Shown here: piece by piece, positions 18,908-38,628 of the stretch | Layout of the letters: each line of letters opens with the position of its first letter | Numbering within the stretch: the first letter of the stretch is position 1 | Assembly (NCBI GenBank): GCA_046160525.1 | Contig: JBJXGQ010000406.1 | Location: 1-51,195, forward strand | Reading direction: 5' to 3' | Origin: Burkholderiales bacterium | GTDB lineage: Bacteria > Pseudomonadota > Gammaproteobacteria > Burkholderiales > SHXO01 | DNA length: 51,195 nucleotides | Program-made: the position numbers and the translations under genes | Notes under the pieces: model-generated | The model's input: only the letters and a program-made list of their open reading frames with translations | What the model was told of the DNA's origin: nothing | The model's database searches: none

Positions 18908-18935
18908 GCTTTCCTCCCTTTAATCAATCTTATTT

Positions 18936-19072
18936 CCCTCATCCCAACCCTTTTGGTTTCGGCATTACCTAAAGGTAAGCCTACACCGCAACAAGCCGCT
19001 TCGCGTCGTGTTGTCCCGACGGAGAAGGGCTTTTCCTCCCTCGCCCTTCGGGAGAGGGACCGAGGGTGAGGG
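18936..19072. repeat. REP-like palindromic element (CCCTCAcCC..GGGAGAGGG type) carrying an internal ~60-nt extra segment
   Basis: Ends CCCTCATCCCAACCCTT and GAGGGTGAGGG are inverted; internal TCCCGACGGAGAAGGG and CCCTCGCCCTTCGGGAGAGGG. Confidence 0.6.
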
Positions 19073-19090
19073 ACCGTTCACCTCACTTTC

Positions 19091-19753
19091 TCACGCGGAA
19101 ATCTCCGGCATGAGCGATCGCAATCCTACCGCGCTGCCTCCCAATTCCCCGGCGATCTCGATCAAGGTCTGCCACAGATACGCGGCGAAGGTGTGATCGC
19201 ACCATATCCGGTAACGCGGCAGGCCTTGGTACGGCTCCCAGATGACCAGCACGGTCACACCTACCATGGATGTCATGACCACGGTGCGGTCCTCGGGCTT
19301 CCACGCGCGGAAATTTACGTTGCATGTTTGCACGAGCAAATCGTTCGCGTTTGGTCCGTAGAGTACCAAGGCAGCATCTTGCCTTAGCACGGGAGACACG
19401 CCGGAGGCCGGGGCGAGTACTCCTCTTAATCGTTCGACGACTGTCCCGCCTGCACGGTCTTCGAGAAAGAATTCGCTGCGCGCGAGCCGGGCCACCAAGG
19501 TGCCCTCACGGGTGCGCGTCCAACTGTTGATTGCGGGCGGAACTTCCATGCCTTGGTTAACCAGCCACGTTTGCGCCTTGGAGCCCTTGACGCCCATGCG
19601 AAGCAGGCAACTTGCATCGCTCAATTGAACAGGACCGGCATTCTCGCCCCCTTCAATTTCCATGGGGACCAGCATTCCATGCACGACGGTCCAACGCGGG
19701 TTGAGCGGTACGAGGAAATCGTGCAGCGGGCTGAGGCGGTTCCCGGTGTTCAT
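19091..19753 (-). CDS. mgdD: N-methylglutamate dehydrogenase subunit D (sarcosine oxidase gamma-like)
   Basis: SPLH, LSDASCLLRMGVKG, ARLARSEFFLED, RQDAALVL.G...LL.QTCNVNF, YRIWCD.TFA.YLW; 4-nt overlap with mgdC. Confidence 0.75.
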   Translation of the reverse strand: MNTGNRLSPLHDFLVPLNPRWTVVHGMLVPMEIEGGENAGPVQLSDASCLLRMGVKGSKAQTWLVNQGMEVPPAINSWTRTREGTLVARLARSEFFLEDRAGGTVVERLRGVLAPASGVSPVLRQDAALVLYGPNANDLLVQTCNVNFRAWKPEDRTVVMTSMVGVTVLVIWEPYQGLPRYRIWCDHTFAAYLWQTLIEIAGELGGSAVGLRSLMPEISA

Positions 19754-22626: not shown

Positions 22627-22883
22627 TTGGGCGCCTCGCCCCACAGATAAGTCGCCAGCACCCGGTCAACGGTGGTATCGCGCTCCGCGATGAACCACAC
22701 GCCGCTGGGCACGTGATACCACCACTCCTTCTTTATGCCAGGGGCGCCGTTGCGGTTGAACACGTAGTCCGACCACTGCTCGTTGGAGCAAGTGGAAGGG
22801 TCCGGCATAGGACGCACTTCGCCGCCAAAAGCGAATTCCGAAACGGGGCGCGGGCCGTTGATGGGGCAGGTAAGAAGTTTCAC
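22623..22883 (-). CDS. mgdB: N-methylglutamate dehydrogenase subunit B (sarcosine oxidase delta-like)
   Basis: CPINGPR..SEF.FGGE.R.MPDP, W.DYVF.R...PG...EWW.H..SG.WF.AERDT. Confidence 0.85.
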   Translation of the reverse strand: MKLLTCPINGPRPVSEFAFGGEVRPMPDPSTCSNEQWSDYVFNRNGAPGIKKEWWYHVPSGVWFIAERDTTVDRVLATYLWGEAPK

Positions 22884-22889
22884 GACGAC

Positions 22890-25436
22890 TTACGCCGCTT
22901 CTGGAATCTTATTGGTCCCCGCGAGAGGTACACCCGTGGCTCGCGCCGTGGTAAGCGTAATGGAACGCACGTCCTCGGGTTCTAGATTCTGCACGTTGGT
23001 CTTGCCCGTGCAGCGCGCCATGATGGAGCATTCCTCGCGCAGCGCACGCAAAAAGGATGCGGCCTGGTCGCGCCGCTCTTCGTCTGCCACGTCGGAGTAG
23101 AACACCATGCCGTTATTCTCCACGATGCCGCCTACGGCGAAAGCCATGGACACCGATACCACCGCTGCCTTGCAACCCAGGCCGACAATCTTCGCGACGT
23201 CCGTGCCCGAGCGTATGCCGCCGAAATACAGAAGATCGATATCTTCTTCGCGGTTCATGGATCGCATGATCGCGATGGCATCGCGCATCACGGAAAGATC
23301 GGGATGGCCGCCAAGTTCGCCCCATGGCCGCGCCATGTTTCCGGAGCCCGAGAGGATCATGATGTCCATCTTTTGTTCGAGTGCAAAAGGTATGGCCCGT
23401 GGCAGGTCACGTGCCTCGGTAACCAAGCCCGTGAGTTGGGTGTCGCGCGCCTTGCGCACATCGAACGGTGCGAACCCGGAGGGCGAATAATAGATGACGC
23501 CCAAGGCCTTCTCGTCCGGCTTGTCCTTGCCTGCTTGCGCAAGCTGGAACCACGGTGTGTCCGGATGGATACGATGGCGCCCAAGATAGGCGACCCCCAT
23601 TTCCCGCACGCCATGCTCGATGGATTCGCGCACCTGCGGGACCGCCTCATCGAACCCCGCGACAAGGTATGGCAACTCAAGTTTGACGCGCTGGCCCAAT
23701 TCCACGGACACAGCGCACGCATCTCGATAGGGGTCAATCACCAGCCTCGATAAATTCGCTGGTAAGAACACTAGATCGTCCAGCGTAGCGGGACGATCTT
23801 CGGGGAAGGGATTGCCGCGCGTGCGCAAGCGCTTTTGCAACATGCTGGACTGCGTGGCCACATCCAAGGGGTTCGTGCGCGCCATGACGAAGATGTCCTC
23901 TCGCGTGCTCACGTCGTAGTTGGCGGTGCCCGTTTCCGCATCGCAGCGGTAGCAGCGTGCGGCTTCGTCCTTGGCTTCCTTCTCCGTATAAGTGGATTCG
24001 ATTTCCGGAAACGCCACCGGATTCTTGCCCAAACCATGGAAGGGCTGGTGCTGGCGGCCGATCACTTCCCAATTGGGATCCTGCGCCGGGGAAACGCGGC
24101 GGGTACGGAAGGGTGTGCGATAGGGCACGGGATTCGCGCGGCCGTCCAGTTGCGCCTTGATGTAGTAGGCGGCACGATGGCCGTGCTGCATGGCCATGAC
24201 GATGGTGGAACCCCCAAAGGCGCCGTCGCCCGCCGCGAACACCTTGGGATCGGCCGTGCGCATGGTCTTCCAATCGGTGCGCACGCGGTCCGCGTTCATC
24301 AGCCCGCGCTTCGCCAATTCCTCGCACTCGCCTTTCTGCCCCACGGCGAGAATCACCATGCCGCAGGCGAGATCGTGTTCGCTACCCGAGACATTCTCCG
24401 CTTGGCGGCGGCCATCCTTTCCAGGTTCCCCGAACTGTGTGAGCACACAGCGCAGGGCAAAGCCTTTATCCGTGTCAAGTGCCGCCACGGGTTGTGTGTT
24501 GTAGAGGAACTCCACACCCTCCTTGATGGCGCCATCGAGTTCATCCTTGCGCGCCGGAATTTCCTTCGGGCCACGGCGGTAGATCACTTTGACTTGTTTG
24601 CATCCAGGCAGGCGCAGCGCGGCGCGGCAGGCATCCATGGCCACGTCGCCGCCGCCCACGACGATGACGGTCTCGGGCATGGCGGGCCGGTCGCCGGCAT
24701 TGATACGGCGCAGGAAGCCCACGCCGTCCACAATGCGCGGATCGTCCTTGCCTTCGATATCCATGGTCTTACCCCACCACGAGCCGATGGTGAGTAGCAC
24801 GGCATCGTGGCGCGATTTCAAGTCCTCGAGACTCACGTCGCGGCCCAGCGCGGTGTTCAGATGAACCTTGATGCCCGGGCAGTGCTTGAGCATGCGGTTC
24901 ATGTCTTCTTCGATGATGCCAGGAGGCAGGCGGAATGCGGGAATGCCCCACACCATCATGCCGCCCAGACGGTCCGTCATTTCGTAGACGTGCACTTCGA
25001 ACCCGGCTTCGGCCAGATCTTGCGCGGCGGTGAGTCCAGCGGGGCCCGAACCTACTATCGCGACCGTTTCCTTGCGCGTGACGGACACGGCGGGCAAATG
25101 GAAGCTCGTGCCCAGCTTGTCCATGATGAAGCGCTTCAAATTGCGGATGGCGATGGGGCCGTCACTATCCGCACGGCGGCAAGCGGGTTCGCAGGGCGCG
25201 TCGCACACGCGGCCGCAGATGGAGCTGAATGGGTTGGTGGCGGTGATGGCCTCGAAGGCTTCCTCCACCTTGCCTTCCCAGATGTATCCGATGTATGAAG
25301 GCGCATCGGTGCCGATGGGGCAAGCTACCTGGCAAGGCGCGGGGACGAAGTTGATGTCCTGTATATCTTCGCGCAGTCCTTCCGGCGTGGGGCCGGGCTC
25401 GATGCGCTGGATGTCGTAAACGTTGACTGCGCTCAT
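22890..25436 (-). CDS. GltD-like Fe-S/FAD/NAD(P)H oxidoreductase fused to a degenerate glutamate-synthase FMN-barrel domain
   Basis: APCQVACP, NPFSSICGRVCDAPCEPACRR, GSGPAG, GGGDVAMD, YRRG, FAAGD, EAARCYRCD; C-terminal LDDLVFLPA.LSR and GGIRSGTDVAK..GLG without the 3Fe-4S cysteines. Confidence 0.8.
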   Translation of the reverse strand: MSAVNVYDIQRIEPGPTPEGLREDIQDINFVPAPCQVACPIGTDAPSYIGYIWEGKVEEAFEAITATNPFSSICGRVCDAPCEPACRRADSDGPIAIRNLKRFIMDKLGTSFHLPAVSVTRKETVAIVGSGPAGLTAAQDLAEAGFEVHVYEMTDRLGGMMVWGIPAFRLPPGIIEEDMNRMLKHCPGIKVHLNTALGRDVSLEDLKSRHDAVLLTIGSWWGKTMDIEGKDDPRIVDGVGFLRRINAGDRPAMPETVIVVGGGDVAMDACRAALRLPGCKQVKVIYRRGPKEIPARKDELDGAIKEGVEFLYNTQPVAALDTDKGFALRCVLTQFGEPGKDGRRQAENVSGSEHDLACGMVILAVGQKGECEELAKRGLMNADRVRTDWKTMRTADPKVFAAGDGAFGGSTIVMAMQHGHRAAYYIKAQLDGRANPVPYRTPFRTRRVSPAQDPNWEVIGRQHQPFHGLGKNPVAFPEIESTYTEKEAKDEAARCYRCDAETGTANYDVSTREDIFVMARTNPLDVATQSSMLQKRLRTRGNPFPEDRPATLDDLVFLPANLSRLVIDPYRDACAVSVELGQRVKLELPYLVAGFDEAVPQVRESIEHGVREMGVAYLGRHRIHPDTPWFQLAQAGKDKPDEKALGVIYYSPSGFAPFDVRKARDTQLTGLVTEARDLPRAIPFALEQKMDIMILSGSGNMARPWGELGGHPDLSVMRDAIAIMRSMNREEDIDLLYFGGIRSGTDVAKIVGLGCKAAVVSVSMAFAVGGIVENNGMVFYSDVADEERRDQAASFLRALREECSIMARCTGKTNVQNLEPEDVRSITLTTARATGVPLAGTNKIPEAA

Positions 25437-27403
25437 GATGCTTTACGGAATATGGGGCGTTGCATTTGCTCTTGGGGTACGTAGGGCAAGCGCGTGATGG
25501 CGGCCGCTTCGGGGGTGAGCGCAACCAAGTCGTCGCGGCTCAGCTTATGCACGTCGTCGTGACCGAGGGCGCGCGTGACCGCGGCCAGCTGCCAGCGCAC
25601 GGATTCCAAATAACGATGGATGTTCTGCGCTTCCACCGGAACGTTGTAGCGCTTCTCGTGTTCGGGATCTTGCGTGGCGATGCCCACGACGCAGGAGCCC
25701 ACGTGGCATTGCAAGCACGCAATACAACCGCCCGCGATGATCGCACCCGTGCCCAAGGCCACGGCGTGAGCGCCCAGCGCGATGGCCTTGGCGGCATCCA
25801 CGCCATCCTTGACGCCGCCCATCAGCACGATGGGCATCTTGCGAATAGCATCCGCGCCTTCACCCAGTTCGGCGAGCGCGTCCATGGCCTCTTGAATGGC
25901 GGAAAGCGTGGGGATGCCCACGTACTCCAGCACTTCATGGGAAGCAGCGCCCGTGGAGCCTTGCAGGCCATCCAGCTCGACGAAATCGAAACCGTCCTTG
26001 TAGGCGATCTTGATGTCATCGCGCACACGGCCTGCGCCGAGTTTCACGGACACTGGAATGCGGTAGCTGGTGGCTTCGCGAAATTCCTCCACCTTGATCA
26101 CCAAATCGTCCGCGCCCAATACATCCGGGTGGCGCGAGGGTGAGCGCAAGTCGATGCCGGCGGGAATACCGCGAATGCGCGCGATTTCCTTCGTCACTTT
26201 CTTCGCCATCAACTGGCCACCCAAGCCGGGTTTGGCGCCTTGGGAGATGTAGATCTCCAAGCCGTTGGCGCGGCGCATGTCGTGGATATTCCAACCTAGG
26301 CGCCCCGACAGGCATTGATAAATGATCTGGTCGGCGGCGGCGCGTTGCTCATCGGACATGCCACCCTCGCCCGTGTTCTCGGAGACGCCGGAGAGCTTGG
26401 AGGCGATGGCGAGCGCCACCTTGGTGGATTTGGATAGCGCACCGTAACTCATGGGCGCGATGGTGACGGGCATGCTGAGCTTGATGGGGTTGGCACCCAT
26501 GCGCCCGCCGATCTCCGTCTTGAGCGCGACCTTGTTCACCACGTCGCGGTCGTGCTGTATGCCCGAAATATTCTTGCGAAAACCGATGTCGCTCAAGTGG
26601 GGAAGCGCGCGCGAAGCGCCATAGCCGCGTATGCGGTAGCGGCCGATGCGCGAGCGGATGAAAATGTCCTCCTGGACTTTCTCGTTCCAGTAGCCGGACA
26701 CCGCGCCCGACGCCATGAAGAAAGGCACTTGGCGCGTGCGCGGTTCCGTGCGCGGATAGCGCAGCTTCTTGCCGGCGTTGACGATCTTCTGGAGGACACC
26801 CTTGAAGGGAATCCCGTAACGGTCGAGGAACTGCGCGATGTCGCCGGCCTCTTCACGAGGTAGGTCAATGAGCTGCGCATCGGTACCTAACGATTGCAGC
26901 TTGCCCGCGACGTAAATGGAACCGCCGGTCATGTCCTGGCCCACTTGCTCGCCCGAGTTGCCGAGAATCACGATGCGGCCGCCGTACATCATGTAACCCG
27001 CCATGAAGTTGGCGTTGCCGCAGCAGAGCAGGGTGCCTTCCTTCATCACTTGGCCCGCACGCGATCCGATGTTGCCCTTGACGATGACTTCGGCGCCGCG
27101 TATGGCCACGCCCGCGATGGCGCTGGCGTTACCGTTGACGACGATGGAGCCCTTCAGCATGTTGTCGGCCAAACCCCAACCCACGTTGGCTTCCACTTCA
27201 AAGCGCGGTCCGTCCGTGAGGCCGGCGCAGAAATAACCCGCGGAGCCGCGTATCTTGACCTTGATGGGATACGTTAGCCCCACGCCGATGTGATGGCGTG
27301 CATCGGGGTTGGCGATTTCCACGTCTTCGCCTGCTTCACCGAGCAGGCGTAGTTTCTCGTTCGCTTCGCGAACGCTAAGTTGAGCTAGATCGAGCGTTGC
27401 CAT
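25433..27403 (-). CDS. N-methylglutamate synthase GXGXG (MgsB-like) and FMN/3Fe-4S (MgsC-like) fusion
   Basis: N-terminal GSAGYFCAG and GXGXG beta-helix repeats; C-terminal IAPMSYGALS, NTGEGG, SQGAKPGLGG.L, SPSRHPD, CIACLQCHVGSCVVGIATQD. Confidence 0.8.
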   Translation of the reverse strand: MATLDLAQLSVREANEKLRLLGEAGEDVEIANPDARHHIGVGLTYPIKVKIRGSAGYFCAGLTDGPRFEVEANVGWGLADNMLKGSIVVNGNASAIAGVAIRGAEVIVKGNIGSRAGQVMKEGTLLCCGNANFMAGYMMYGGRIVILGNSGEQVGQDMTGGSIYVAGKLQSLGTDAQLIDLPREEAGDIAQFLDRYGIPFKGVLQKIVNAGKKLRYPRTEPRTRQVPFFMASGAVSGYWNEKVQEDIFIRSRIGRYRIRGYGASRALPHLSDIGFRKNISGIQHDRDVVNKVALKTEIGGRMGANPIKLSMPVTIAPMSYGALSKSTKVALAIASKLSGVSENTGEGGMSDEQRAAADQIIYQCLSGRLGWNIHDMRRANGLEIYISQGAKPGLGGQLMAKKVTKEIARIRGIPAGIDLRSPSRHPDVLGADDLVIKVEEFREATSYRIPVSVKLGAGRVRDDIKIAYKDGFDFVELDGLQGSTGAASHEVLEYVGIPTLSAIQEAMDALAELGEGADAIRKMPIVLMGGVKDGVDAAKAIALGAHAVALGTGAIIAGGCIACLQCHVGSCVVGIATQDPEHEKRYNVPVEAQNIHRYLESVRWQLAAVTRALGHDDVHKLSRDDLVALTPEAAAITRLPYVPQEQMQRPIFRKAS

Positions 27404-28296
27404 GTGCGGAAGGTGCCGGGTGGGGGTTCGGTGGTGTTGAGCGCTTGTCCGGGGAAAAGACGGTTGAGCGAAACTTCCTCGGAGGCGATGGCGATGATGT
27501 CGTCGGTTTCGTACATCACCATGGGTTTGGCGGCCAGGCGGTCCTTGGCGAAACCGATTTCGTCCTTGGTGGAAACCAGGAAGGAGAAGGTGCCGTCGAG
27601 ATCCTCGATGGATTGCGCGAGCGCTTCTTGCAGCGTGCGGCCTTGCGAGAGCTTGTCGGCGAGATAGACCGCGATTAACTCGCTATCGTTGCTGGTGTTG
27701 AAGGCGAAACCTCTCTTGGCCAAGCGGCGGCGCATCTTGTAGTAGTTGGTGATTTGCCCGTTGTGCACGATGGCTACGTCGGCGAATCCCGTTGCCCAGA
27801 AGGGATGGGAGGCATCGGGCGTCACGTCCGATTCCGTGGCCAGCCGCACGTGGCCAATGCCGTGGGAGCCGTGGAAATCGCGCACGTTGTAGGCATCGTC
27901 CACGTCGTGGGCACTGCCCGTGTCCTTGATGATGTCCAGGCTCTCGCCGATGGAGAACACCTTGGCGGCGTGCTCCATGTCGTAGGAAAATTTCTGCACG
28001 TCGCCGTCGAAGTGCACGATGACGCTGTAGCTGGTGCCCGCGCGCTCGTCCGACAGAATCGTGGCGTTGTGATCGCGCAACTGCGCTTTGATCTCGGCGA
28101 CCTTGCCTTCCGCTTCGCGGCCATCGCCCACGAAGAAGCGCAGACGCAGCTCTCCAGGATTGGCGTGGTGATACAGCGCGAACCCCGTGGAGTCCGGCCC
28201 GCGGTGCTGGCAGCCATCCAACATGCTGATGAGCGACTTGCCCACCTGGGCATCCGCGCCGGGGCGCTTGAACAAAATTCCTGCTATTCCGCACAT
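27385..28296 (-). CDS. mgsA: Class II (Ntn) glutamine amidotransferase, N-methylglutamate synthase subunit A
   Basis: MCGIAG with N-terminal Cys, HRGPDSTG, GHVRLATES, HPF, HNGQITN, DSE; GAGGTG RBS. Confidence 0.8.
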   Translation of the reverse strand: MCGIAGILFKRPGADAQVGKSLISMLDGCQHRGPDSTGFALYHHANPGELRLRFFVGDGREAEGKVAEIKAQLRDHNATILSDERAGTSYSVIVHFDGDVQKFSYDMEHAAKVFSIGESLDIIKDTGSAHDVDDAYNVRDFHGSHGIGHVRLATESDVTPDASHPFWATGFADVAIVHNGQITNYYKMRRRLAKRGFAFNTSNDSELIAVYLADKLSQGRTLQEALAQSIEDLDGTFSFLVSTKDEIGFAKDRLAAKPMVMYETDDIIAIASEEVSLNRLFPGQALNTTEPPPGTFRTWQRSI

Positions 28297-28326
28297 AGTG
28301 TCACCTCAAGAAATAAACGCATCGCC

Positions 28327-28430
28327 GCCTCAGTGTCCCATTGAAACGATACCCTTTTAGCTCCGGCATAACCCAGGCTTCGCATGGATTAGCCTTCACT
28401 GAAAGGGTGCAGCCTCAGTGTCCTACTGAA
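28327..28430. repeat. 19-bp direct repeat duplicating the mgdA 3' end and flanking a 66-nt hairpin-forming insert
   Basis: GCCTCAGTGTCCCATTGAA (28327-28345) vs GCCTCAGTGTCCTACTGAA (28412-28430), 17/19 identical; inner ACCCTTTTAG...CTGAAAGGGT inverted repeat. Confidence 0.7.
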
Positions 28431-29656
28431 GCAGCACCTTTCTCCCCCGTTAACTCGTAGTTCGCGAACCGCGACAGGCGAAAGCCCTTGATCAAATCAT
28501 GATCGCGATCGTTGAACAGGGTGTAACTCATGGTCTTGCCGCTCACGGGTGTCGCCTTGAATCCCCAGGTGCCCCATCCCGCATCCAGATAGAAACCTTC
28601 CACCGGTGTCTTGCCCATGATGGGGGCGAAATCCGGCGTCATGTCCGCCAGGCCCGCCCACTGGCGAACGATTTTCGCGGTGGAAAGAAATGGGAACATA
28701 TCCAGGATGTGAGCGGAGAGTCCTTCCGCGAAGTCGAGCGTGGAGCGGGTGTTCTGCACTTCGTAGGGATCCAGCGATGCACCCATCACCAGTTCTCCGC
28801 GTGCGGATTGGCTGATGTAAATGTGTAAGCTGCCCGAAACGAATATCTGGTTGAGCCAGGGCTTCATGGGTTCGCTCACCATGGCCTGAAGCGGGTGGAC
28901 GAAAATGGGCGAACGCAAGCCCACCATGTTCAAGATGCGCGGCGTGAACCCCGCCACGGCGCACAGCACCTTGTTGGTGGCCACGTAACCGCGCGTTGTG
29001 TGTACGCCTACCACCTTGCCGCCCTTCACATCGATGCCCGTCACTTCGGTCTGCTGGTGAATCTCCACGCCGCGCTGGTCCGCGCCGCGCCCATAGCCCC
29101 AGGCCACCGCGTCGTGGCGCGCGATGGCGCCCGGCGCGTGATATAGGGCGCCGAGTATGGGCGCGTGCCCGGCGCAAGTAAGATCGATCTGCGGGCAGGC
29201 CTTCTTGATGAACTCCGGGCCTACCACTTCGCTGTCCACGCCGTAGTGCTTGTTGACCTCCGCCCGCCAGCGCGAAGTGCGCAGGGCGGAATCCGTGTGG
29301 GCCAGGGTGAAGTGGCCGCGCGTGGAGTAAAACAGGTTCAGGTCGAAGTCCTGGGCGAGGTCCTGGTAGAGCCGCACACTCTCGTCGTAGAAGGCCACGC
29401 CTTCGGGGGTGAGGTAGTTGGAGCGGATGATGGTGGTGTTGCGCCCGGTGTTGCCGCCACCCAGATAACCCTTCTCCAATACGGCTACATTGCTGAGTTT
29501 ATAGTCCCTGGCAAGATAGTAAGCGCTCGCCAAGCCGTGCCCGCCGGCGCCGATGATCACGGCGTCGTAGGTAGGCTTGAGGCGCTCCGGGACGCGAAAC
29601 ATGCGTGGTTCCGGGTGCTCGCGGCTCAAGGCAAAACGCAATAGCCCGAGGGGCAT
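28415..29656 (-). CDS. mgdA: N-methylglutamate dehydrogenase subunit A (sarcosine oxidase beta-like FAD subunit)
   Basis: IIGAGGHGLA.AYYL, GGNTGRNTTIIRSNY, ARHDAVAWGY, GWGTWGFKATP, EKGAASVGH; start at ATG 29656 (alternative GTG 29701). Confidence 0.85.
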   Translation of the reverse strand: MPLGLLRFALSREHPEPRMFRVPERLKPTYDAVIIGAGGHGLASAYYLARDYKLSNVAVLEKGYLGGGNTGRNTTIIRSNYLTPEGVAFYDESVRLYQDLAQDFDLNLFYSTRGHFTLAHTDSALRTSRWRAEVNKHYGVDSEVVGPEFIKKACPQIDLTCAGHAPILGALYHAPGAIARHDAVAWGYGRGADQRGVEIHQQTEVTGIDVKGGKVVGVHTTRGYVATNKVLCAVAGFTPRILNMVGLRSPIFVHPLQAMVSEPMKPWLNQIFVSGSLHIYISQSARGELVMGASLDPYEVQNTRSTLDFAEGLSAHILDMFPFLSTAKIVRQWAGLADMTPDFAPIMGKTPVEGFYLDAGWGTWGFKATPVSGKTMSYTLFNDRDHDLIKGFRLSRFANYELTGEKGAASVGH

Positions 29657-29741
29657 GGGGAAAGGTAATGGGCGAAAAGAGGGGTCTATTTTCCTTGCCA
29701 CCTGCCATGGGTGTCAAGAATGGCATTCAATAATATTGCGT

Positions 29742-29763: not shown

Positions 29764-30051
29764 CTATTTGGCCGGCATCCTGTGCAAATCCCAGCGTAAA
29801 CGGGCAATGCGGTAGGCGTCCACCAAGGAGATGACGTAGATGAACACCCCGCCCGCGTGGCGGCCAAGGAAGGACTGCGCGGGGGTCGTTAGATGGTGGC
29901 TCACGATGGCGAGCGAGATCATGAAGAACACGAAGACGATGGCGCGCGTTGCATTGTTGTTGAGCACTTGGCCCATGCCCGGCAGCAGCGCCGCGACGGC
30001 AAGTACCGACCACGGATTGAGGGGAGGTTTGGGCGCGGGCGTGTCAGGCAT
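29764..30051 (-). CDS. Small membrane protein, methylamine-cluster associated hypothetical
   Basis: Three hydrophobic segments; LLPGMGQV.N and DAYR.AR; overlaps upstream gene by 8 nt. Confidence 0.7.
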   Translation of the reverse strand: MPDTPAPKPPLNPWSVLAVAALLPGMGQVLNNNATRAIVFVFFMISLAIVSHHLTTPAQSFLGRHAGGVFIYVISLVDAYRIARLRWDLHRMPAK

Positions 30052-30700
30052 GGGTGGAGATTGTATTGGCTACGGCGTTCGCTCGCGCTAGCAGAAGTTC
30101 CAGCAGCGCGGGCGGCACGGCACCGATTTCGAAATGCCCGGCGCGAAGCACCAGATACTCGGCACGCCGTGCTTGCGAGAGTTGGTATACCAAGCGCACG
30201 CCCTGGGGCGTGACCAGAATTTCCTTCGCGCGCGCATCGGCGAAGAATTCGGCCGCATGCGGTGCCAGCGATACCAACGATGCTTGCGGCGCACCGCACT
30301 TGATGGTCAATTCCGTGGACCACCCAGGGGGAGAATCAAGGCGGTAGGGTAATTGCCCGCCAGGCGAGTAGAACTCCGTATTCTGGCTGCGAGCGAGGAT
30401 GTCCAGGTGCGGAAATTCGCGTAGATCCGCTCGCAACGAAACCGAGATCCACAGGGAGGGCAGCTTACGGAAGGTGGCATCATCACGAAACAATCTCACC
30501 TCCGCGGCCTTGCTCGCGAACTTGCCGCGCAAGACCGGGAACCCGTCCGCGGCAATGGTTTTCTCGCACTGCGCAAGCGGAGTGTTCTCGCAGCCTAGAA
30601 CATTGGTGCGCCAGGCCGCGTAGCGCCGCTGGTCCCGGCGGTGCATCCACGCGAGGAGGCCCCCCAAGAAGAGCGCCAGGACCAGAAGTCCGAATTTCAT
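30044..30700 (-). CDS. Membrane-anchored hypothetical protein
   Basis: N-terminal TM MKFGLLVLALFLGGLLAW, then a soluble domain (RKLPSLW, EFYSP, KEILVTPQGVRLV, YLVLR); coupled to the downstream gene. Confidence 0.7.
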   Translation of the reverse strand: MKFGLLVLALFLGGLLAWMHRRDQRRYAAWRTNVLGCENTPLAQCEKTIAADGFPVLRGKFASKAAEVRLFRDDATFRKLPSLWISVSLRADLREFPHLDILARSQNTEFYSPGGQLPYRLDSPPGWSTELTIKCGAPQASLVSLAPHAAEFFADARAKEILVTPQGVRLVYQLSQARRAEYLVLRAGHFEIGAVPPALLELLLARANAVANTISTHA

Positions 30701-31345
30701 CGTTTCACCAGGGGCTCGCATGTCCTCTAATGTCGTAATATTACGTGGCGCAAAGAGCACTCCGGCGCGGCCGGGGACCCAAGGAGTGCCTAGGACCGAG
30801 CTAGATCATGACAAAAAGCTTCGAGTTGATCCAAACGACAAACCGCCGCATAGCCACTTAAGACCGCCGGTGCGGCGCGGACCGCCGCGCAAGTTCGGTG
30901 CGGGAAGTGAACGCCGCGGGCACTGCCGTGATATTGCGAGAACTCCTGGACGAGGCTCATGCACGATTACGCGCGCTGGAAAAAACAGTGGAAATCCTTC
31001 GCCGCTGATCTGAGCATCTTGGATCTTGGCCCGTGACTGGGCTTTAGTCATCTCCCCTCCCAAGACGTCTCATCCAAGCAGGTGAGATGCAATTCACCTA
31101 TACGGATTACCGAGACTGCCAAGCCTGGGGGATGGCAGCCCGGAATTGACTGAGTACGATGGCCGCTGCCAGTAGGGGGTCAGATCCGTGCCCTGGGGCT
31201 ATTCCCATCGCGAAAACGGTACCGCTTGAGTAAACCAGTTGTACCGGCAACCCGGGGATCAGGCCAACACTCCTGCTTGGCGCCACAAAGAAACCGATTG
31301 TCCCGCGACTTGAATCGTACGACGAGCCAACAGGAGGACCTAGAG

Positions 31346-32722
31346 ATGGAACCTAATAATTCGCAACCCGCACAATCCGCGCAACCCGCCAATTCGGACC
31401 GGCGCCAATTCATGACGCAAGCGGCTGGTGTGGTTGCCGCGACCGCCGCCGCCGCGGCCACGGTGGGAAGCAACTCCGCCACCGCCGCGCAAGGCAGCGA
31501 CAACGTAGTATTCAGGGCCGAAATGGGCAGGCGGCCCGAAGACCAACGCACCAAGACCCATAACCGCTGGCACCCCGATATTCCCTTCGTGCAGTGGTTC
31601 AAACCGGGAGATGAGTTCCGGGTCGAGTGTTACGACTGGACGGGTGGCCAGATCAAGCCCGACAACAGCGCCAACGACGTGCGTGACGTTACCTTGAGCC
31701 TGGTTCACTACTTGAGTGGTCCGTTCGGCGTGCAGGGCGCGGAGCCCGGCGACCTCCTCGTGGTGGATCTTCTGGAACTGGGATACCTGCCAGACTCCAA
31801 ATGGGGCTTCACTGGAATTTTCGCCAGGGAAAATGGCGGCGGTTTCCTGGTCGATCACTTTCCGGATGCGCGCAAGGCGATCTGGGATTTTCACGGCATG
31901 ATGTGTTCATCGCGCCATATCCCCGGCGTGGAATGGCCAGGCTTGGTCCATCCAGGGTTGATCGGTTGTTTGCCCGACCGAGCGCTGCTGGAGAAGGCAA
32001 ACAAGCGCGAAGCGGCGTTACTGGCTACCAATCCGAATCGCGTGCCGCCGCTGCTTGCCCCGCCTTACGCCGACACTGCCCTCATGGGACAAATGACCGG
32101 GGCGGCCGCGAAGAGGGCGGCGGCCGAAGCTTGGCGCACGGTGCCCCCGCGCGAACATGGCGGTAACTGCGACATCAAGAATCTGTCGCGCGGATCCAAA
32201 ATCTACTTCCCCGTTTACGTCAAGGGCGGCGGCCTTTCCATGGGCGATATTCACTGGTCGCAGGGCGACGGCGAAATCACCTTCTGCGGGGCCATCGAGA
32301 TGGCGGGGTGGATCGATCTGCGAGTCGATATCATCAAGGGCGGCATGGCCAAGTACGGCATCGTCAACCCGATCTTCAAGCCCAGCCGCACCGAACCGCA
32401 TTTCTCGGAGTACCTGGTGTTCGAGGGAATTTCGGTGGATGAAAAAACCGGCGAGCAATACTACCTGGACGCACATGTGGCCTACCGGCGCGCGTGTCTG
32501 AACGCCATCGAGTATCTTAAGAAGTTTGGTTACTCCGGCGAACAGGCTTACATGATTCTGGGAACGGCCCCCGTCGAGGGGCGTATCAGCGGCATCGTGG
32601 ACATCCCCAATGCCTGCTGCACGGTTGCGGTTCCGACCGAAATCTTCGACTTCGACATCCGGCCCACGGCCTCCGGGCCCATGCACAAGGTCCCGCGGGT
32701 GAGCGTGGCGATGCCCAGTTAG
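31346..32722 (+). CDS. fmdA: Formamidase (acetamidase/formamidase family) with N-terminal twin-arginine-like leader
   Basis: HNRWHPDIP, ECYDWTGGQI, VHYLSGP, PPREHGGNCDIKNLSRGS, SQGDGEITFCGAIEM, ISGIVDIPNAC; CAGGAGGA RBS before ATG 31346; DRRQFM leader. Confidence 0.93.
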   Translation: MEPNNSQPAQSAQPANSDRRQFMTQAAGVVAATAAAAATVGSNSATAAQGSDNVVFRAEMGRRPEDQRTKTHNRWHPDIPFVQWFKPGDEFRVECYDWTGGQIKPDNSANDVRDVTLSLVHYLSGPFGVQGAEPGDLLVVDLLELGYLPDSKWGFTGIFARENGGGFLVDHFPDARKAIWDFHGMMCSSRHIPGVEWPGLVHPGLIGCLPDRALLEKANKREAALLATNPNRVPPLLAPPYADTALMGQMTGAAAKRAAAEAWRTVPPREHGGNCDIKNLSRGSKIYFPVYVKGGGLSMGDIHWSQGDGEITFCGAIEMAGWIDLRVDIIKGGMAKYGIVNPIFKPSRTEPHFSEYLVFEGISVDEKTGEQYYLDAHVAYRRACLNAIEYLKKFGYSGEQAYMILGTAPVEGRISGIVDIPNACCTVAVPTEIFDFDIRPTASGPMHKVPRVSVAMPS

Positions 32723-32734
32723 GTATTCGCACGG

Positions 32735-32803
32735 GGCGAAGAGGGAAACCTCTTCGCCTGGCTTGACAGCCGGCGGCACCAGCGGATGCGGCCGGCTCTC
32801 TTT
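32735..32803 (+). other. Two intercistronic hairpins between fmdA and fmdB
   Basis: GGCGAAGAGG-gaaa-CCTCTTCGCC perfect stem, then AGCCGGC...GCCGGCT followed by CTCTTT. Confidence 0.55.
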
Positions 32804-32829: not shown

Positions 32830-33180
32830 ATGCCCACCTACGACTATCGCTGCGAACAATGCGGCGACTTTGAAATGCGCCGCCCCATGAGCGAATCCAG
32901 CGCCCCCACGAAATGTCCGAGTTGCCAGGCCGATGCGCGCCGTTTAATCCTGGCCCCGTTTCTCGCGATGATGAACCCGCATTCGCGCATCGCGCATGCT
33001 CGCAACGAAAAGAGCGCGGATGCCCCGCTGGTCATGTCTCGCGAGCAGCTTCACCAGACGGGAAGGCCGCGTGCACACGTACATACTCATGATCACGGGC
33101 CTCGCGATCCGAGGCGCGCGCGCGCGGGAGTAGGAGAGGACTGGGTGCGCTCGAGCCGGTCTTCGGTGATCGGGCATTAA
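32830..33180 (+). CDS. fmdB: FmdB-family zinc-ribbon protein
   Basis: MPTYDYRCEQCG.FE..RPM.......CP.C, AHARNEKSA..P, His-rich tail; follows fmdA. Confidence 0.9.
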   Translation: MPTYDYRCEQCGDFEMRRPMSESSAPTKCPSCQADARRLILAPFLAMMNPHSRIAHARNEKSADAPLVMSREQLHQTGRPRAHVHTHDHGPRDPRRARAGVGEDWVRSSRSSVIGH

Positions 33181-33199: not shown

Positions 33200-34345
33200 T
33201 CAGGGTTTGTCCGTGCAAATGCGCGAATGCAGATGCACTAATTCCATCTGCCCGTGAGTATTGGTTTTCTGGAATATTTGCTTCAGGTGGCTGCGCACGG
33301 TGTTTTCCGAAACATGCAACGCGCGTGCGGTGCTGGCCAGGGACATTCCCGTGAAAATCATGGCACTCACGCGTGCCTGCGCTGGACTGAATTCGAATTG
33401 CCTGGAGAACGAGCAATCGTGATGACTATGTTCTGAATGGGGGCTTCTCGCGGTGAGCACCACCAGTTCCCGGCTCTGTCCTTCGCGCGCGAGAAAAGCC
33501 CGGCCAGCGGAATAGACTGAGACCACCGTGGGGTGCCGGCCGCCGGGCACGGAGACGGTCACCACGCGTGAAGTGTCCGCTGAATCCGGCGCGTTCGCAA
33601 CCCATGCCATGGCTTCCCGCAGCGCCTTGCTGTCCGCCGTTGCCGCCGCCGCGATGCGCTCGCCGTCCATGCGCAAGCCCGATTCGTGGCGAAGCAAATC
33701 CTCCGCTGACTTCGTTTTATAGAGGATGCGCCCCTGCGCATCGGCGAGAAACGTGGCGTGCCCATGCCGCTCGACGATGCGTGTCATGGTCTCGCCAAAG
33801 TCGGTGACCTGGCGCCGGTGCCAGTAATTTTCCAGCGCTAGCGAGAGGTGGGAAAGCACGTCTTGAAAGCCGGATTTTTCGTGCTCCTGGAAACCGTCTT
33901 GATCCTCCGTGCGGTGTACCGCGACGTAGTAGACGAGATCGCCATGCCGCGCGGCGACGCCACACAGGCGGTGCAGCAAGCGGTTCGGTTTAAGTAGGCT
34001 GCGATAGAAGTCGGTTTTGACCAGATCTCGGTTGCTTAACAACTCCTCGCCGGTCAACACCCGGCCCGGAGAATATTCCGCGCTCGAGAGGAACCACGGG
34101 TTGCGGGGGGCGTGCTCGGCATAGGCGGCTCGCAGATCGGGATCTCGCGGGGCTTGGTAAAGAACCTCGCCCCTGCCGCTGGAAAAGCGATGGCTGGCGA
34201 GCGTTGTCCAGCGGCCATCGAGCCAATCGCCAAGCAATTCGAGTGTGTCACCCCAAGCGGCGTCCCGCTGGGTGGTCGCATGTACTCGGTAGAGCAAAGA
34301 GCCGGGTACGGATTTCGGTTCGCAATCGCCGGGCGGACGGGCCAT
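33200..34345 (-). CDS. LuxR-type HTH transcriptional regulator with GAF/PAS-like sensor region
   Basis: C-terminal FSPAQARV..MI..G.SL...A..LHVSENTVRSHLKQIFQKT.TH.Q.ELV. Confidence 0.85.
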   Translation of the reverse strand: MARPPGDCEPKSVPGSLLYRVHATTQRDAAWGDTLELLGDWLDGRWTTLASHRFSSGRGEVLYQAPRDPDLRAAYAEHAPRNPWFLSSAEYSPGRVLTGEELLSNRDLVKTDFYRSLLKPNRLLHRLCGVAARHGDLVYYVAVHRTEDQDGFQEHEKSGFQDVLSHLSLALENYWHRRQVTDFGETMTRIVERHGHATFLADAQGRILYKTKSAEDLLRHESGLRMDGERIAAAATADSKALREAMAWVANAPDSADTSRVVTVSVPGGRHPTVVSVYSAGRAFLAREGQSRELVVLTARSPHSEHSHHDCSFSRQFEFSPAQARVSAMIFTGMSLASTARALHVSENTVRSHLKQIFQKTNTHGQMELVHLHSRICTDKP

Positions 34346-34583
34346 GTCTGCACGCCTTATTGCTTGCTGGAAGGACGCCTGAACGGCAGGGCGTATTCAA
34401 GGTTCGCTGTCCCGGGCAGGAAAACTGGAGAACCATGCGGCCGGGGTGGACAATATATTCCTTGGGAGCGGCGTTGGGAAGTGCATTCAGCCTATTGCTT
34501 GCGCTGCGTCTTGCGCGAATAATCTGGCGGACATTCACCGGTGCCGTGACCTTGGTCGTGGCCCAAGCGGAGCGCCATCTTCC

Positions 34584-37325
34584 GTGATTCGGCTCAAACG
34601 CGAATACCAGTCCTGGGTAGCAAACGAAACGATGGAGGATTACGCGTTGCGCTACGCCGCGCGCTCCTACCGGCGCTGGTCACCGTTTGTTCTAGCCAAT
34701 ACCGCCATCGGCGGCATTTCCTTTCTCGCCCTGGAAGCCATCGGCGCAAGTATCACGGTGAGCTACGGGTTTCAGACCGCGTTCGCGGCGATCATCCTCG
34801 TGTCTGTGCTGATCTTTCTCATCAACTTGCCGATCGCCTATTACTCGACCATATCCAATGTCGATATCGATCTGCTGACGCGCGGGGCGGGTTTCGGTTA
34901 TATCGGTTCGACCTTGACTTCCCTTGTCTACGCCTCGTTCACGTTCATTTTCTTCGCGCTCGAAGCCGCGATCATGGCGCAGGCGCTCGAATTGGGTCTC
35001 GGACTCAACATCGCCATCGGCTATCTGCTGTGTTCCCTAGTCATCATTCCCCTGGTGTTCTTTGGCGTGACCCTGATCAATAAACTTCAGATGTGGACGC
35101 AGCCCATCTGGGTAGTGCTGCTCGTCTTGCCCTTCGCGTACATCCTTTATCGCGACCCCGGCGTGCTGGCCGCTTGGCGCTCCTATTCCGGTAACGCGGT
35201 GGCGAACGGGGAGTTCAATTTCCTTCATTTCGGTCTGGCCGCCGGCGTGTTGTTTTCCCTCGTCGTGCAGATCGGCGAGCAGGCCGACTACCTTCGCTTT
35301 CTGCCGGATAAGACGCCCAAGAACCGGTTCGCCTGGTGGTCCGCCCTGCTCGGCGCGGGGCCGGGTTGGATTGTCATCGGAGGGTTGAAGATCTTGGCCG
35401 GCAGTCTGCTCGCAGTGCTGGCGATCCGCGCCGGGGCCTCGGCGAGCGAAGCGGTCACGCCCATCAACATGTACATCAAGGCCTATGAGTATGTATTCGA
35501 CGACCGGGTTGTGATCCTGGCCGTGGCTGTCGTCTTCGTCGTCATCTCCCAGGTGAAGATCAACGTCACGAATGCCTACGCGGGCTCTCTGGCTTGGTCC
35601 AACAGCTTCGCGCGGCTTGCCCATTACCATCCGGGCCGCGTCGTCTGGCTCGTGTTCAATGTCCTGATCGCGCTGCTGCTCACGCTGCTCGGCATATTCG
35701 CCACGCTGGAGGCGGTGCTGCACGTCTACTCCAATGTCGCGACCGCCTGGATCGGCGCGCTGGTGGCCGATCTCGTCGTGCTCAAACCGGCGGGCATTAG
35801 CCCTCGTTACATCGAATTCAAACGAGCGCACCTGTACAACTTCAATCCCGTGGGTTGCGGGGCCATGTTGATCGCCTCGTTCATATCGCTCATCGCCTAC
35901 GCCGGTGTACTGGGCGAGGTTTGCCGCGCCTATTCGGTCTTCATTGCCTTGGTCACGGCGTTTTTCAGTGCGATCGTCATCGCCTACGCTACCCGCGGAA
36001 AGTACTACATCGCGCGTCCCGATCGACACTTTCGTAACCGCGATCCGGACGAGTTGGTTCGGTGCTGCATCTGCGAGAAGGAATATGAGCCGCTTGACAT
36101 GGCGCATTGCCCGTTTTACCAGGATCCGATTTGTTCGCTTTGCTGCGGCTTGGAGGGACATTGCCACGATTTCTGCAAGCGGCCCGATACGGCCAGGGTG
36201 GGTGATACCGAAGCGCATGTCGATCCAAAAGCGCATCTGGCGCCGCATTTTGGACGGCGGTTGGGCCGGTTCTTCGGGTTGTTCAGCATCGTGTCCGCGG
36301 TCATGGCAGCGGTATTTCTGCTGTCCTACCGCCTGCTCGATATCCATGACGCCGGCACCGGCACCGAGATGGCGAATATTTTCCTGCGCATCTATGCGGC
36401 GGCACTCGTTGTCATCGCGGTGGGTTCTTGGTGGATCGTTCTCTCTCACGAGAGCCGCGAACTGGCCGAGGGGGAATTGCTGCATTCGCTGCACCACCTT
36501 GAACTGACCCGGTCCGAACTGGTGGAATCCGAAAAAATGGCTTCCCTCGGCGGGTTGGTGGCGGGCGTGGCCCACGAGATCAATACGCCCGTGGGCATCA
36601 TCGTCGGTGCCGCGTCGTACCTGAGTGACCGGGCCGCGGAAATGCGCGCCAAGCTGGCCGCGGGTGGTTTGTCCGAAACGGATTTCGAGCGCTTCGTCCA
36701 TGATGCGTCCCAGTCGGCCCGTCTGCTGTCATCCAACGCCGGCCGTGCCGCGCAGATGGTGGAGAGCTTCAAGCGCGTTGCTGTCGATCAGACCAGCGAC
36801 GAACGGCGCCGCTTCGATCTTCGGGGGTACATGGAGGAAACTATTTTCAGTCTACGGCCCAAATTTCAAGGCACCCGGGTTACTACTCGCGTCGATTGTC
36901 CGCGGGGTATCGAAATGGACAGTTATCCTGGATCCTTCGCGCAAGTGCTAACCAATCTCCTGCTCAATTCGCTTCAGCATGCTTTCGATCCCGGCGCGTC
37001 CGGGGCGATCGTCATCACGGCCAAACCGGCCGGCGATGATGAAGTGGAGATCCGCTACCAAGACGATGGCCGCGGAATTCCCCAGGCCCTGCACGACAAG
37101 ATATTCCAGCCGTTCTTTACCACCCGGCGTGGCGCCGGTGGCAGTGGCCTGGGATTGCACCTCGTTTATAACATCGTCACACGCAGGCTCGGAGGCATGA
37201 TCGCCGTGGAAAACGCGTACCCAAGGGGAACCCTATTCACTTTACGTGTCGCGCGCATCGGTGGATCCGGCGCGCCGGTGGCCAGCGCCCTGCGTGGCCT
37301 GCCAGGGAGCAGCGCTCATGGTTAG
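34584..37325 (+). CDS. Membrane sensor histidine kinase with N-terminal NCS1/permease-like domain and Cys-rich linker
   Basis: REYQSWVANETMEDYALRY, DLLTRGAGFGYIGST, KINVTNAYAGSLAWSN; CCIC...CP....ICSLCC....CHDFCK; EKMASLGGLVAGVAHEINTP; NSLQHAF, DDGRG, PFFTT, GSGLGL. Start uncertain (ORF open from 34446). Confidence 0.85.
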   Translation: MIRLKREYQSWVANETMEDYALRYAARSYRRWSPFVLANTAIGGISFLALEAIGASITVSYGFQTAFAAIILVSVLIFLINLPIAYYSTISNVDIDLLTRGAGFGYIGSTLTSLVYASFTFIFFALEAAIMAQALELGLGLNIAIGYLLCSLVIIPLVFFGVTLINKLQMWTQPIWVVLLVLPFAYILYRDPGVLAAWRSYSGNAVANGEFNFLHFGLAAGVLFSLVVQIGEQADYLRFLPDKTPKNRFAWWSALLGAGPGWIVIGGLKILAGSLLAVLAIRAGASASEAVTPINMYIKAYEYVFDDRVVILAVAVVFVVISQVKINVTNAYAGSLAWSNSFARLAHYHPGRVVWLVFNVLIALLLTLLGIFATLEAVLHVYSNVATAWIGALVADLVVLKPAGISPRYIEFKRAHLYNFNPVGCGAMLIASFISLIAYAGVLGEVCRAYSVFIALVTAFFSAIVIAYATRGKYYIARPDRHFRNRDPDELVRCCICEKEYEPLDMAHCPFYQDPICSLCCGLEGHCHDFCKRPDTARVGDTEAHVDPKAHLAPHFGRRLGRFFGLFSIVSAVMAAVFLLSYRLLDIHDAGTGTEMANIFLRIYAAALVVIAVGSWWIVLSHESRELAEGELLHSLHHLELTRSELVESEKMASLGGLVAGVAHEINTPVGIIVGAASYLSDRAAEMRAKLAAGGLSETDFERFVHDASQSARLLSSNAGRAAQMVESFKRVAVDQTSDERRRFDLRGYMEETIFSLRPKFQGTRVTTRVDCPRGIEMDSYPGSFAQVLTNLLLNSLQHAFDPGASGAIVITAKPAGDDEVEIRYQDDGRGIPQALHDKIFQPFFTTRRGAGGSGLGLHLVYNIVTRRLGGMIAVENAYPRGTLFTLRVARIGGSGAPVASALRGLPGSSAHG

Positions 37326-38628
37326 CGAACTGGGGAGAAATTTCGGCAGGGGAGGGCAGCCGGCTTCGGGCGCGGCCCAGGATCGTTGGTTGGTGCTGCT
37401 CGTGGACGATGAACCGCAGATACACGAGGTCACCAAGATGGTTCTCGCCGGCACCGAGTACGACGGCCTCCCGGTCGAGATTCATAGTGCGTATTCGGCG
37501 TTGGAGGCCAAGGCGGTGCTGGAGCAACATCCTCAAACCGCGCTCGTGTTGCTCGATGTGGTCATGGAGAGCGATGAAGCGGGTCTCGCGCTGGTGCATA
37601 CTATCCGCGACGAACTCGGTAACGCGGACGTCCAGATTGTGTTGCGTACCGGACAGCCGGGGATCGCGCCGGAACGCGAGGTGATCCTCAAATACGACAT
37701 CAACGGTTATTTTCTCAAGACCGAGATCACCGCCCGCAAACTCTACTCGATCGTGATCTCGTCGCTGCGGGCGTTTCAGTACATCAAGGCCCTCAAGCCG
37801 AGAGAAACCGCCGCGAACATTCTTCCAGGCGGGTTTCCTCGCGCACAACGTAGGTATGAGTTGGAGGACGAGGTCATCAAAGCCATTGAAACGGGCGAAA
37901 CCCATCTCTCGGCGCAGCCGCAGCTCCATCTGGCCTCCGATACCATTGTGGGCGTGGAAGTCCTCGCCCATGTGAGGACAAGCGGGGGAATTGCAGGCCC
38001 GTCACGTTTAGCCAGCGCCATTGGGGACCAGGAGCTGAGGCTGCGCATCGATGATTGGCTTCTCAGGCTCGCCTGCGGCTGGGCGCGGAGTTGGCAATCG
38101 CTGAATCTACCGGTATTCCGCGTATCGGTACCGGTGTTGACGGACCAGGTGTGGGATTGCCAGTTTCTATCGATGCTCGAAAAGTGCCTGGCGGATACCG
38201 CGCTCCCGCGCGGCACGCTGGATCTGGAGGTGCCGGAAACCTTGGTGTTGGGAGAGCAGGCGCCCGTGCGGGACGCCCTGGCGTTCATGCAGCAAAAGGG
38301 CGTATCCGTGACGTTGGTGGATTTCGGATCGGGAATGATTTCCTTGCCGCATTTGCAGCGGCTGCTTCCGGACCGGCTCAAAATTCACAGATCCTTCGTG
38401 CGCAACGCCGCCAACGACCGGGAGAGATCCGCGATCGCCAGAACCATTATCGCGCTTGCCCACACTTTGGGCATTACTGCCGTGGCCGATGGTATCTCCA
38501 CCGAACTCGAGTACCAGTTCTTCAAGTGGGAAGGCTGCGATATTGGCCAGGGCGATTTTCTCGCCCGGCCCATGGCGGCCGCCGAGGTGAGTGACGTAAT
38601 ACTATCCAAGGGACGGCCGGCTCATTGA
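37318..38628 (+). CDS. Response regulator, REC plus degenerate EAL domain
   Basis: VDDEP, LLDVVME, LRTGQPG, KTE receiver; EAL-like QPQL..L..D.IVGVEVL with substituted catalytic motifs; overlaps the kinase stop. Confidence 0.85.
   Translation: MVSELGRNFGRGGQPASGAAQDRWLVLLVDDEPQIHEVTKMVLAGTEYDGLPVEIHSAYSALEAKAVLEQHPQTALVLLDVVMESDEAGLALVHTIRDELGNADVQIVLRTGQPGIAPEREVILKYDINGYFLKTEITARKLYSIVISSLRAFQYIKALKPRETAANILPGGFPRAQRRYELEDEVIKAIETGETHLSAQPQLHLASDTIVGVEVLAHVRTSGGIAGPSRLASAIGDQELRLRIDDWLLRLACGWARSWQSLNLPVFRVSVPVLTDQVWDCQFLSMLEKCLADTALPRGTLDLEVPETLVLGEQAPVRDALAFMQQKGVSVTLVDFGSGMISLPHLQRLLPDRLKIHRSFVRNAANDRERSAIARTIIALAHTLGITAVADGISTELEYQFFKWEGCDIGQGDFLARPMAAAEVSDVILSKGRPAH

Follow-up and report, generated by a model that had tools for sequence, protein, structure and literature searches.

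A formamidase with a probable twin-arginine export leader in a Burkholderiales bacterium

Can a true formamidase be an exported enzyme? The question is raised by a single gene in a 51,195-nucleotide stretch of DNA from a Burkholderiales bacterium (contig JBJXGQ010000406.1 of assembly GCA_046160525.1; the whole stretch is called the window here), where an open reading frame of 458 aa (positions 31346-32722, + strand) encodes a formamidase (FmdA) precursor whose catalytic core is preceded by a leader resembling a signal for the twin-arginine translocation (Tat) pathway. A sequence-only reading of the window had proposed that this leader carries the enzyme into the periplasm. After weighing the leader, its relatives and the host genome, we consider it probable, on sequence grounds, that the gene encodes a Tat-exported periplasmic formamidase.

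By its sequence, the core of the window protein is a bona fide full-length FmdA formamidase, and hydrolysis of formamide is predicted for it. The NCBIfam equivalog model for FmdA (NF045496; cut-off 500) gives 723.4 bits and aligns aa 54-453 with profile positions 3-402 of 407, a nearly full-profile match that bears out the FmdA core which the sequence-only reading had placed behind the leader. In addition, Pfam family PF03069 scores 594 bits on the window protein (cut-off 27, E 1.2e-178), and the closest solved structure, PDB 2wkn (‘formamidase’), matches query residues 56-447 over chain residues 6-395 at 640 bits. The family-invariant residues of a 70-sequence alignment (R74, H76, P77, R269, E270, G273, N274, D276, G300, D301, H303, D308 and G309) are retained, as are the motif regions HNRWHP, REHGGN-D and GD-H-SQGDGE. 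Only six positions (R68, L119, E144, K152, T349 and N435) distinguish the leader-bearing clade described below from 109 leaderless homologues, and at the last of them the window protein has D, not N. With so few clade-specific positions, there is no sign of an altered active site or of a new substrate. An AlphaFold2 model from a 70-sequence alignment is confident for the core, with a predicted local distance difference test (pLDDT) score of 79-98 from residue 51 onward, and shows the leader detached from it, with pLDDT <50 for residues 4-43 and a helix at 26-37.

Translation and profile alignment place 47-52 extra residues ahead of the FmdA core. The leader peptide quoted in the sequence-only reading is recovered letter for letter on translation, and the RRxF motif, Ala/Val h-region and AxA site described there are all in place. 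The leader opens with a polar n-region (aa 1-18, MEPNNSQPAQSAQPANSD; 31346-31399, + strand), followed by the twin-arginine motif R19-R20-Q21-F22 (31400-31411, +) in the context DRRQFMT (aa 18-24) and by an uncharged, moderately hydrophobic h-region of Ala, Val, Thr and Gly (A26-G41, AAGVVAATAAAAATVG; 31421-31468, +), whose best 12-residue Kyte-Doolittle mean is 1.98. It ends in S-A-T-A-A, where A45-T46-A47 (31478-31486, +) is the likely signal-peptidase site; with cleavage predicted before A48, the mature formamidase would comprise aa 48-458 (31487-32722 with the stop codon, +), the part matched by NF045496, PF03069 and PDB 2wkn.

Whether this leader is translated depends on the start codon. 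As the sequence-only reading had noted, a strong ribosome-binding site is present: the Shine-Dalgarno sequence AGGAGG (31332-31337, +), read from the sequence, lies 8 nt upstream of ATG 31346. A start further downstream, which that reading had named as the result that would overturn it, was looked for among the in-frame candidates ATG at aa 23, GTG at aa 29, GTG at aa 40 (31463) and ATG at aa 60 (31523); no AGGAGG-like site precedes any of them. Moreover, the window gene has no in-frame start codon at the canonical FmdA start position, where leaderless relatives open with M-x-K-x-x-F and the aligned residues here are S-D-N-V-V-F. It could still be supposed that the real start is the GTG at aa 40 or the ATG at aa 60 and that the ‘leader’ is 5' untranslated sequence, since both codons are available in frame and the NCBI pipeline annotated one close relative, P0122, in this way. 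That relative shares a 16,410-bp contig with a second one, P0130, and its NCBI start is a Met inside the h-region, giving a protein of 420 aa instead of 455, so that the export leader is invisible in the public protein record. The frame, however, stays open through in-frame indels among the relatives, which all keep the opening MEP; the GC content at third codon positions is 0.79 in codons 19-47, like that of the core (0.76) and above that of the in-frame stretch upstream of the ATG (0.57); and a start at M60 would cut off the conserved residues F56, A58 and E59. A downstream start is thus very unlikely.

The conservation of the leader among close relatives speaks to its function. The 90%-identity cluster of the window protein has 15 members, 10 of them full length (451-458 aa), drawn from JGI, NCBI and Logan records. 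The MEP start and RRQF are common to all ten, as are 28-31 consecutive uncharged residues and an [AV]-x-A that falls in the same alignment columns, whereas the n-region drifts in sequence and varies in length from 11 to 18 aa through in-frame indels, and the linker between leader and core also differs in sequence. RR and the core motif are a constant 53-54 aa apart, and h-region substitutions are conservative only, the best 12-residue hydropathy in P0130 being 1.39. Fixed RRQF and [AV]-x-A amid a drifting n-region and linker are the pattern that selection on a signal peptide produces. The same ten sequences bear on the suspicion that the leader-core junction is an assembly chimera, which might be raised by a source genome fragmented into 541 contigs. 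The architecture recurs in sequences from different records, and contigs from four DNA runs of one study, a biofilter metagenome that may include the source sample, bridge 31164-31727 without differences or variants; among the runs listed for this stretch, none was RNA. Given this recurrence and the bridging contigs, a chimera is effectively refuted, and we give it practically no weight.

How easily could such a leader arise by chance? A strict pattern (RR-x-[FLIVM] together with >=16 consecutive uncharged residues that include a hydrophobic core, and with A-x-A) occurs 37 times in the 6.15 million residues of all genome open frames of >=60 aa, which corresponds to 3e-4 expected occurrences per 52-residue stretch; at the N terminus it is found in 20 of 8065 candidate open reading frames of the genome, the window gene included. 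Judged by its sequence, then, the leader is neither a product of chance nor a start-codon artefact.

That the leader acts as a Tat signal is less straightforward, and the observations that weigh against export are best considered together. Three profile models match the leader, and every one of them is Tat-type and every one remains below its curated cut-off: TIGR01409 (Tat signal), over model positions 2-29, gives 16.0 bits, or 15.8 in a whole-genome scan, against 16.7; TIGR02811 gives 19.6 bits against 48.45; and PF10399 (Rieske Fe-S Tat signal), the best Pfam match, gives 18.3 bits against 24. In Tat signals generally, consecutive arginines follow a polar n-region and are succeeded by x-F and a hydrophobic residue; the leader departs from the consensus in having M and T in place of L and K, and an acidic residue precedes its RR. 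Ala-rich stretches are also common in a genome of 60% GC. Furthermore, the leader is a rare form, present in only one of the 120 best 90%-identity clusters, the window protein's own (P0002). No RR/Tat-type leader stands in an open frame before the core motif in any of the 152 related loci, among 160 fetched (80 from reference genomes and 80 from metagenome contigs), in which that motif could be read, the other eight lacking it, and searches of 27 further genomes of the genus and 400 further ones of the order turned up no other copy. Finally, the 92%-complete host genome yielded no periplasmic formate dehydrogenase (TIGR01553) above cut-off and no FocA-type channel (PF01226), and the FmdB-type protein encoded downstream of the window fmdA bears no export signal.

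The most direct of these objections, the TIGR01409 score, can be calibrated within the genome, since the cut-off is an operational threshold and not a biological definition. A whole-genome scan returned 48 matches, 28 of them above the cut-off, with the FmdA leader ranking 29th. Proteins were named for 20 matches near this rank, 8 of them above the cut-off and 12 below it. The eight include PhoX and a sulfite-oxidase-type molybdoenzyme. The twelve, at 13.4-15.7 bits, comprise five solute-binding proteins, a multicopper oxidase, a molybdopterin-binding protein of the aldehyde-oxidase type, an amidohydrolase, a dioxygenase, a nitroreductase-like protein, an aldo-keto reductase and one protein without family. 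As seven of these twelve are plainly extracytoplasmic, the TIGR01409 cut-off is conservative in this genome, and the score zone of the FmdA leader is populated largely by truly extracytoplasmic proteins. Among the solute-binding proteins of this genome RR leaders are frequent; one of them, a Peripla_BP_5 (AmiC/UrtA-like) binding protein (G000:C125:21007-22251, - strand), has the Tat-type leader RREFLKSTAVLAAAG and reaches 17.4 bits on TIGR01409.

The match to PF10399 has another side. Rieske proteins suggest an arrangement in which the leader is inserted via Tat or Sec and stays uncleaved, leaving the formamidase anchored to the inner membrane on its periplasmic side; the Rieske Tat signal is the leader's best Pfam match, and cleavage is predicted from A-x-A alone. 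We regard such a tether as quite unlikely, given that [AV]-x-A occupies the same columns in all ten clade members and that the h-region is short and so weakly hydrophobic (1.98 here, 1.39 in P0130) that it would make a poor stable anchor. The preferred alternative is still a cleaved Tat signal.

Where did the leader come from? In a core-only tree of 120 rows, from which the leader had been removed, the ten leader-bearing sequences form one clade (support of 99 in the SH-like approximate likelihood-ratio test, SH-aLRT) inside a well-supported group with their leaderless sisters P0003, P0004 and P0005. A single clade nested within leaderless FmdA suggests one recent gain of the leader in this lineage. 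The nearest leaderless relatives in named records come from alphaproteobacterial metagenome-assembled genomes, at 82-85% identity, whereas NCBI labels the clade members Gammaproteobacteria, and identity to the second FmdA of the same genome is just 70%; hence acquisition of the window fmdA by transfer is likely, as far as sequence comparison can tell. GC content is flat at about 0.60, with no island signal. As for a leader donor, when the leader was compared by blastn and tblastn with the full genome and every fetched locus, similarity was limited to generic Tat or Ala-rich matches; querying with the leader by itself gave nothing besides P0002, and the regions upstream of the closest leaderless relatives have no similarity to it.

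The sequence-only reading had held that characterised FmdA enzymes are cytoplasmic and start near HNRWHP, and it had proposed a survey of homologues with Tat leaders. The position of the motif bears out such a start: HNRWHP starts at residue 20-22 in 108 of 119 full-length homologues, that is, in 108 of the 109 that do not belong to the clade, and at residue 64-71 in the ten leader-bearing sequences and in P0096, whose long extension has no RR and is probably due to a miscalled start. Two related loci (L059 and L074) have no clear start, and one of the best 120 clusters, P0014, is an internally duplicated oddity. As to the survey, the leader is rare near the window protein, and other RR leaders occur farther out. 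Among the best 150 hits of a search of representatives, 12 with an N-terminal overhang or an alignment reaching into the leader were examined. Here, the fragment P0216 carries the leader DRRDFLKTAG, with 24.6 bits on TIGR01409, above the cut-off, and P0145 carries TRRDLLTAAG, with 16.3 bits. The front of P0145 led in turn to P0285, a 435-aa formamidase of Tautonia plasticadhaerens (594 bits on NF045496) with the leader NRRDLLGAAG, whose nearest relatives, P0286 and P0287, are leaderless. Like the window protein, to which they are about 50% identical, P0285, its relative P0145 and P0216 are FmdA at or near equivalog level with an RR leader, but their leaders and linkers differ from those of the window protein in sequence and length, and they occupy a separate branch. 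A 27-row tree, with P0216 and four other rows left out, requires at least two changes of the Tat-leader label. Unrelated Tat-type leaders on separate branches thus indicate at least two separate gains, and such recurrence suggests that placement outside the cytoplasm was selected for and did not arise by accident.

These independent lineages also matter for a further possibility, namely that the extension is translated but does not export, leaving the enzyme in the cytoplasm with a disordered N-terminal tail that serves another purpose or none. The Tat score under the cut-off, the FmdB encoded next door and the reliance of characterised FmdA systems on substrate import, as summarised in the review PMC10781810, would all fit such a tail. 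A functionless tail, however, would not preserve RRQF, an uncharged segment and [AV]-x-A between flanks that vary in sequence and length, the combination has the low chance expectation given above, and separate FmdA lineages bear RR leaders of their own. On balance, a non-exporting tail appears unlikely, and Tat export continues to be the reading we prefer.

The host genome encodes what such export would need. Tat translocase genes lie adjacent to one another on contig C154 (TatA 116 vs a cut-off of 83, TatB 72 vs 56.5, TatC 211 vs 132.7), a signal peptidase I fragment (62.7 bits) lies at a contig end, and Amt ammonium transporters are encoded. The earlier idea of a Tat leader grafted onto a true FmdA therefore gains from the conservation of the leader, the nested clade, the tatABC genes, the leaderless relatives and the genome's separate leaderless fmdA beside urtBCDE; the leader does miss the TIGR01409 cut-off by 0.7-0.9 bit. 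In the mechanism that we propose, the enzyme would fold in the cytoplasm, TatBC would recognise DRRQFMT and the weakly hydrophobic Ala/Val/Thr stretch behind it, and the folded protein would cross the inner membrane by TatA-dependent transport. Signal peptidase I would then cut after A45-T46-A47, leaving a mature enzyme about 3 residues longer than normal FmdA, which in the periplasm would hydrolyse formamide to formate and ammonia. Ammonium could be taken up by Amt, and an amide importer would be unnecessary.

The presence of a second, leaderless FmdA in the same genome gives this arrangement a possible use. The second copy, at 70% identity to the window protein, falls on two contig ends, those of C309 and C49, and opens with MTHKPKETPMPEKLIKIDL; it adjoins urtB, urtC, urtD and urtE equivalogs and an fmdB-type gene. 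The exported enzyme may therefore serve nitrogen scavenging beside a canonical cytoplasmic FmdA fed by a Urt-type importer. No ABC-importer component was found among the 34 larger open reading frames scanned in the window; since an exported enzyme would not need an importer, an importer-free window is consistent with export but is no proof of it.

The genes around the window fmdA raise a second question, that of the substrate. On the + strand, fmdA is followed by an fmdB-like zinc-ribbon gene (32830-33180, +; TIGR02605 59.3 bits vs 31.3; PF09723), and it is divergent from a methylamine cluster of the N-methylglutamate type (17573-29701, - strand), which comprises a type III glutamine-synthetase-like protein (TIGR03105, 648 bits), soxA, soxB and soxG family subunits, a class II amidotransferase and a fused GXGXG plus Glu_synthase protein (656 aa). 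Nothing but this proximity prompts the idea that the enzyme might act physiologically on an N-substituted formamide, N-methylformamide for example, and that methylamine released in the periplasm would be taken up and enter the divergent cluster. We see this as a slim possibility, and methylamine as a product, which the sequence-only reading had also entertained, is speculation from the neighbouring methylamine genes. Formamide is the predicted substrate here.

Other features of the neighbourhood are recorded as observations. The methylamine cluster also contains an 848-aa GltD-like Fer4_20/Pyr_redox_2 protein with no match over its final ~350 residues, and between the cluster and fmdA lie two small open reading frames (30044-30760 and 29764-30051, both -), the former without a Pfam or NCBIfam hit but in a hypothetical-protein cluster of 4559 members with a confident Atlas model. 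Beyond fmdB, a LuxR-type regulator (33200-34345, -) precedes a 959-aa histidine kinase (34446-37325, +), and a receiver-EAL protein (37246-38628, +) follows it. The first ~550 residues of the kinase form a multi-pass membrane domain without a Pfam hit that resembles clusters of purine-cytosine/allantoin permeases (NCS1) at 0.95-0.98 in ESM-Atlas features, and so the kinase next to fmdA-fmdB looks like a permease-derived sensor. Between fmdA and fmdB, a fragment of the molybdenum cofactor (Moco) riboswitch (32734-32759, +; 22.5 bits vs 36, model positions 76-101 of 135) is probably a chance match, and the window gave no other Rfam match. The search for regulatory signals found 0 sigma-70-like sites and no convincing + strand terminator. 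Farther away, a 1291-aa protein (13001-16876, +) combines a purple-acid-phosphatase-like N terminus with a metallophosphatase domain and six Calx-beta repeats.

If the formamidase is indeed periplasmic, the cell could use formamide as a nitrogen source with no ATP-driven importer and no formate production in the cytoplasm, and a cofactor-poor amidohydrolase would join the Tat substrates. Should N-methylformamide be the substrate after all, degradation of a formamide solvent would be linked to methylamine metabolism, again without an amide importer. There are also practical implications. The review PMC10781810 considers formamide for use as a selective nitrogen source in biotechnology, and a naturally exported formamidase would be a ready-made part for such uses. 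Since the leader of one clade member was lost in automated annotation, calls of cellular location for this family may be systematically missed in databases. In addition, Tautonia plasticadhaerens is a named species with an 8.7-Mb contig on record, so that a direct test may be feasible there. Searches on formamidase or acetamidase and export, including the consulted portions of PMC10781810, PMC5118699 and PMC5052560, found no description of an exported FmdA, and nothing published was found on P0285, P0145 or P0216.

How does the window protein compare with known systems? In the wider superfamily, export signals are not exceptional. PDB 3b9t, a member of the PF03069 family entitled ‘Twin-arginine translocation pathway signal protein’, and three paralogues in the host genome resemble the window protein in belonging to the same superfamily and carrying an export signal, although 3b9t matches it over ~60 residues only. 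The paralogue on contig C87 (L006 604-2040, +) has SRRSFLKG and 19.7 bits on TIGR01409 in the genome scan (15.8 when scanned alone), that on contig C323 (L005 1438-2763, -) has an RRKFLA leader, and that on contig C326 (L004 1486-2742, -) has a Sec-type signal. The FmdA model, with its cut-off of 500, gives the three paralogues only 60-196 bits, and, like 3b9t, they are distant family members and not formamidase orthologues as judged from sequence. The window protein is therefore less exceptional than the sequence-only reading implied: export signals of the Tat or Sec type are common among distant family members and have been annotated before. The novelty is narrow: true formamidase orthologues, described as leaderless and import-fed, have gained Tat-type leaders.

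Tat substrates without redox cofactors are familiar, among them AmiA/AmiC and SufI of E. coli, whose folds and substrates are unrelated to those of FmdA. PhoX, which has a Tat signal in this genome, is likewise a hydrolase exported folded and without a redox cofactor, as we propose for FmdA, again with an unrelated fold and substrate. Closer to the enzyme itself, the 409-aa chain of PDB 2wkn is matched from residue 6 and has no counterpart of the leader. A further comparison is with FmdA of Methylophilus methylotrophus, which belongs to the same family at equivalog level; an fmdB-type gene follows fmdA in the window too. According to the review PMC10781810, the M. methylotrophus genes fmdCABDEF include a porin and a binding-protein-dependent importer that feed a leaderless enzyme, and the locus of the second FmdA in the Burkholderiales genome has this classical layout. 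In contrast to the import-fed M. methylotrophus enzyme, the window protein carries a 47-residue Tat-type leader and would probably meet its substrate on the far side of the inner membrane.

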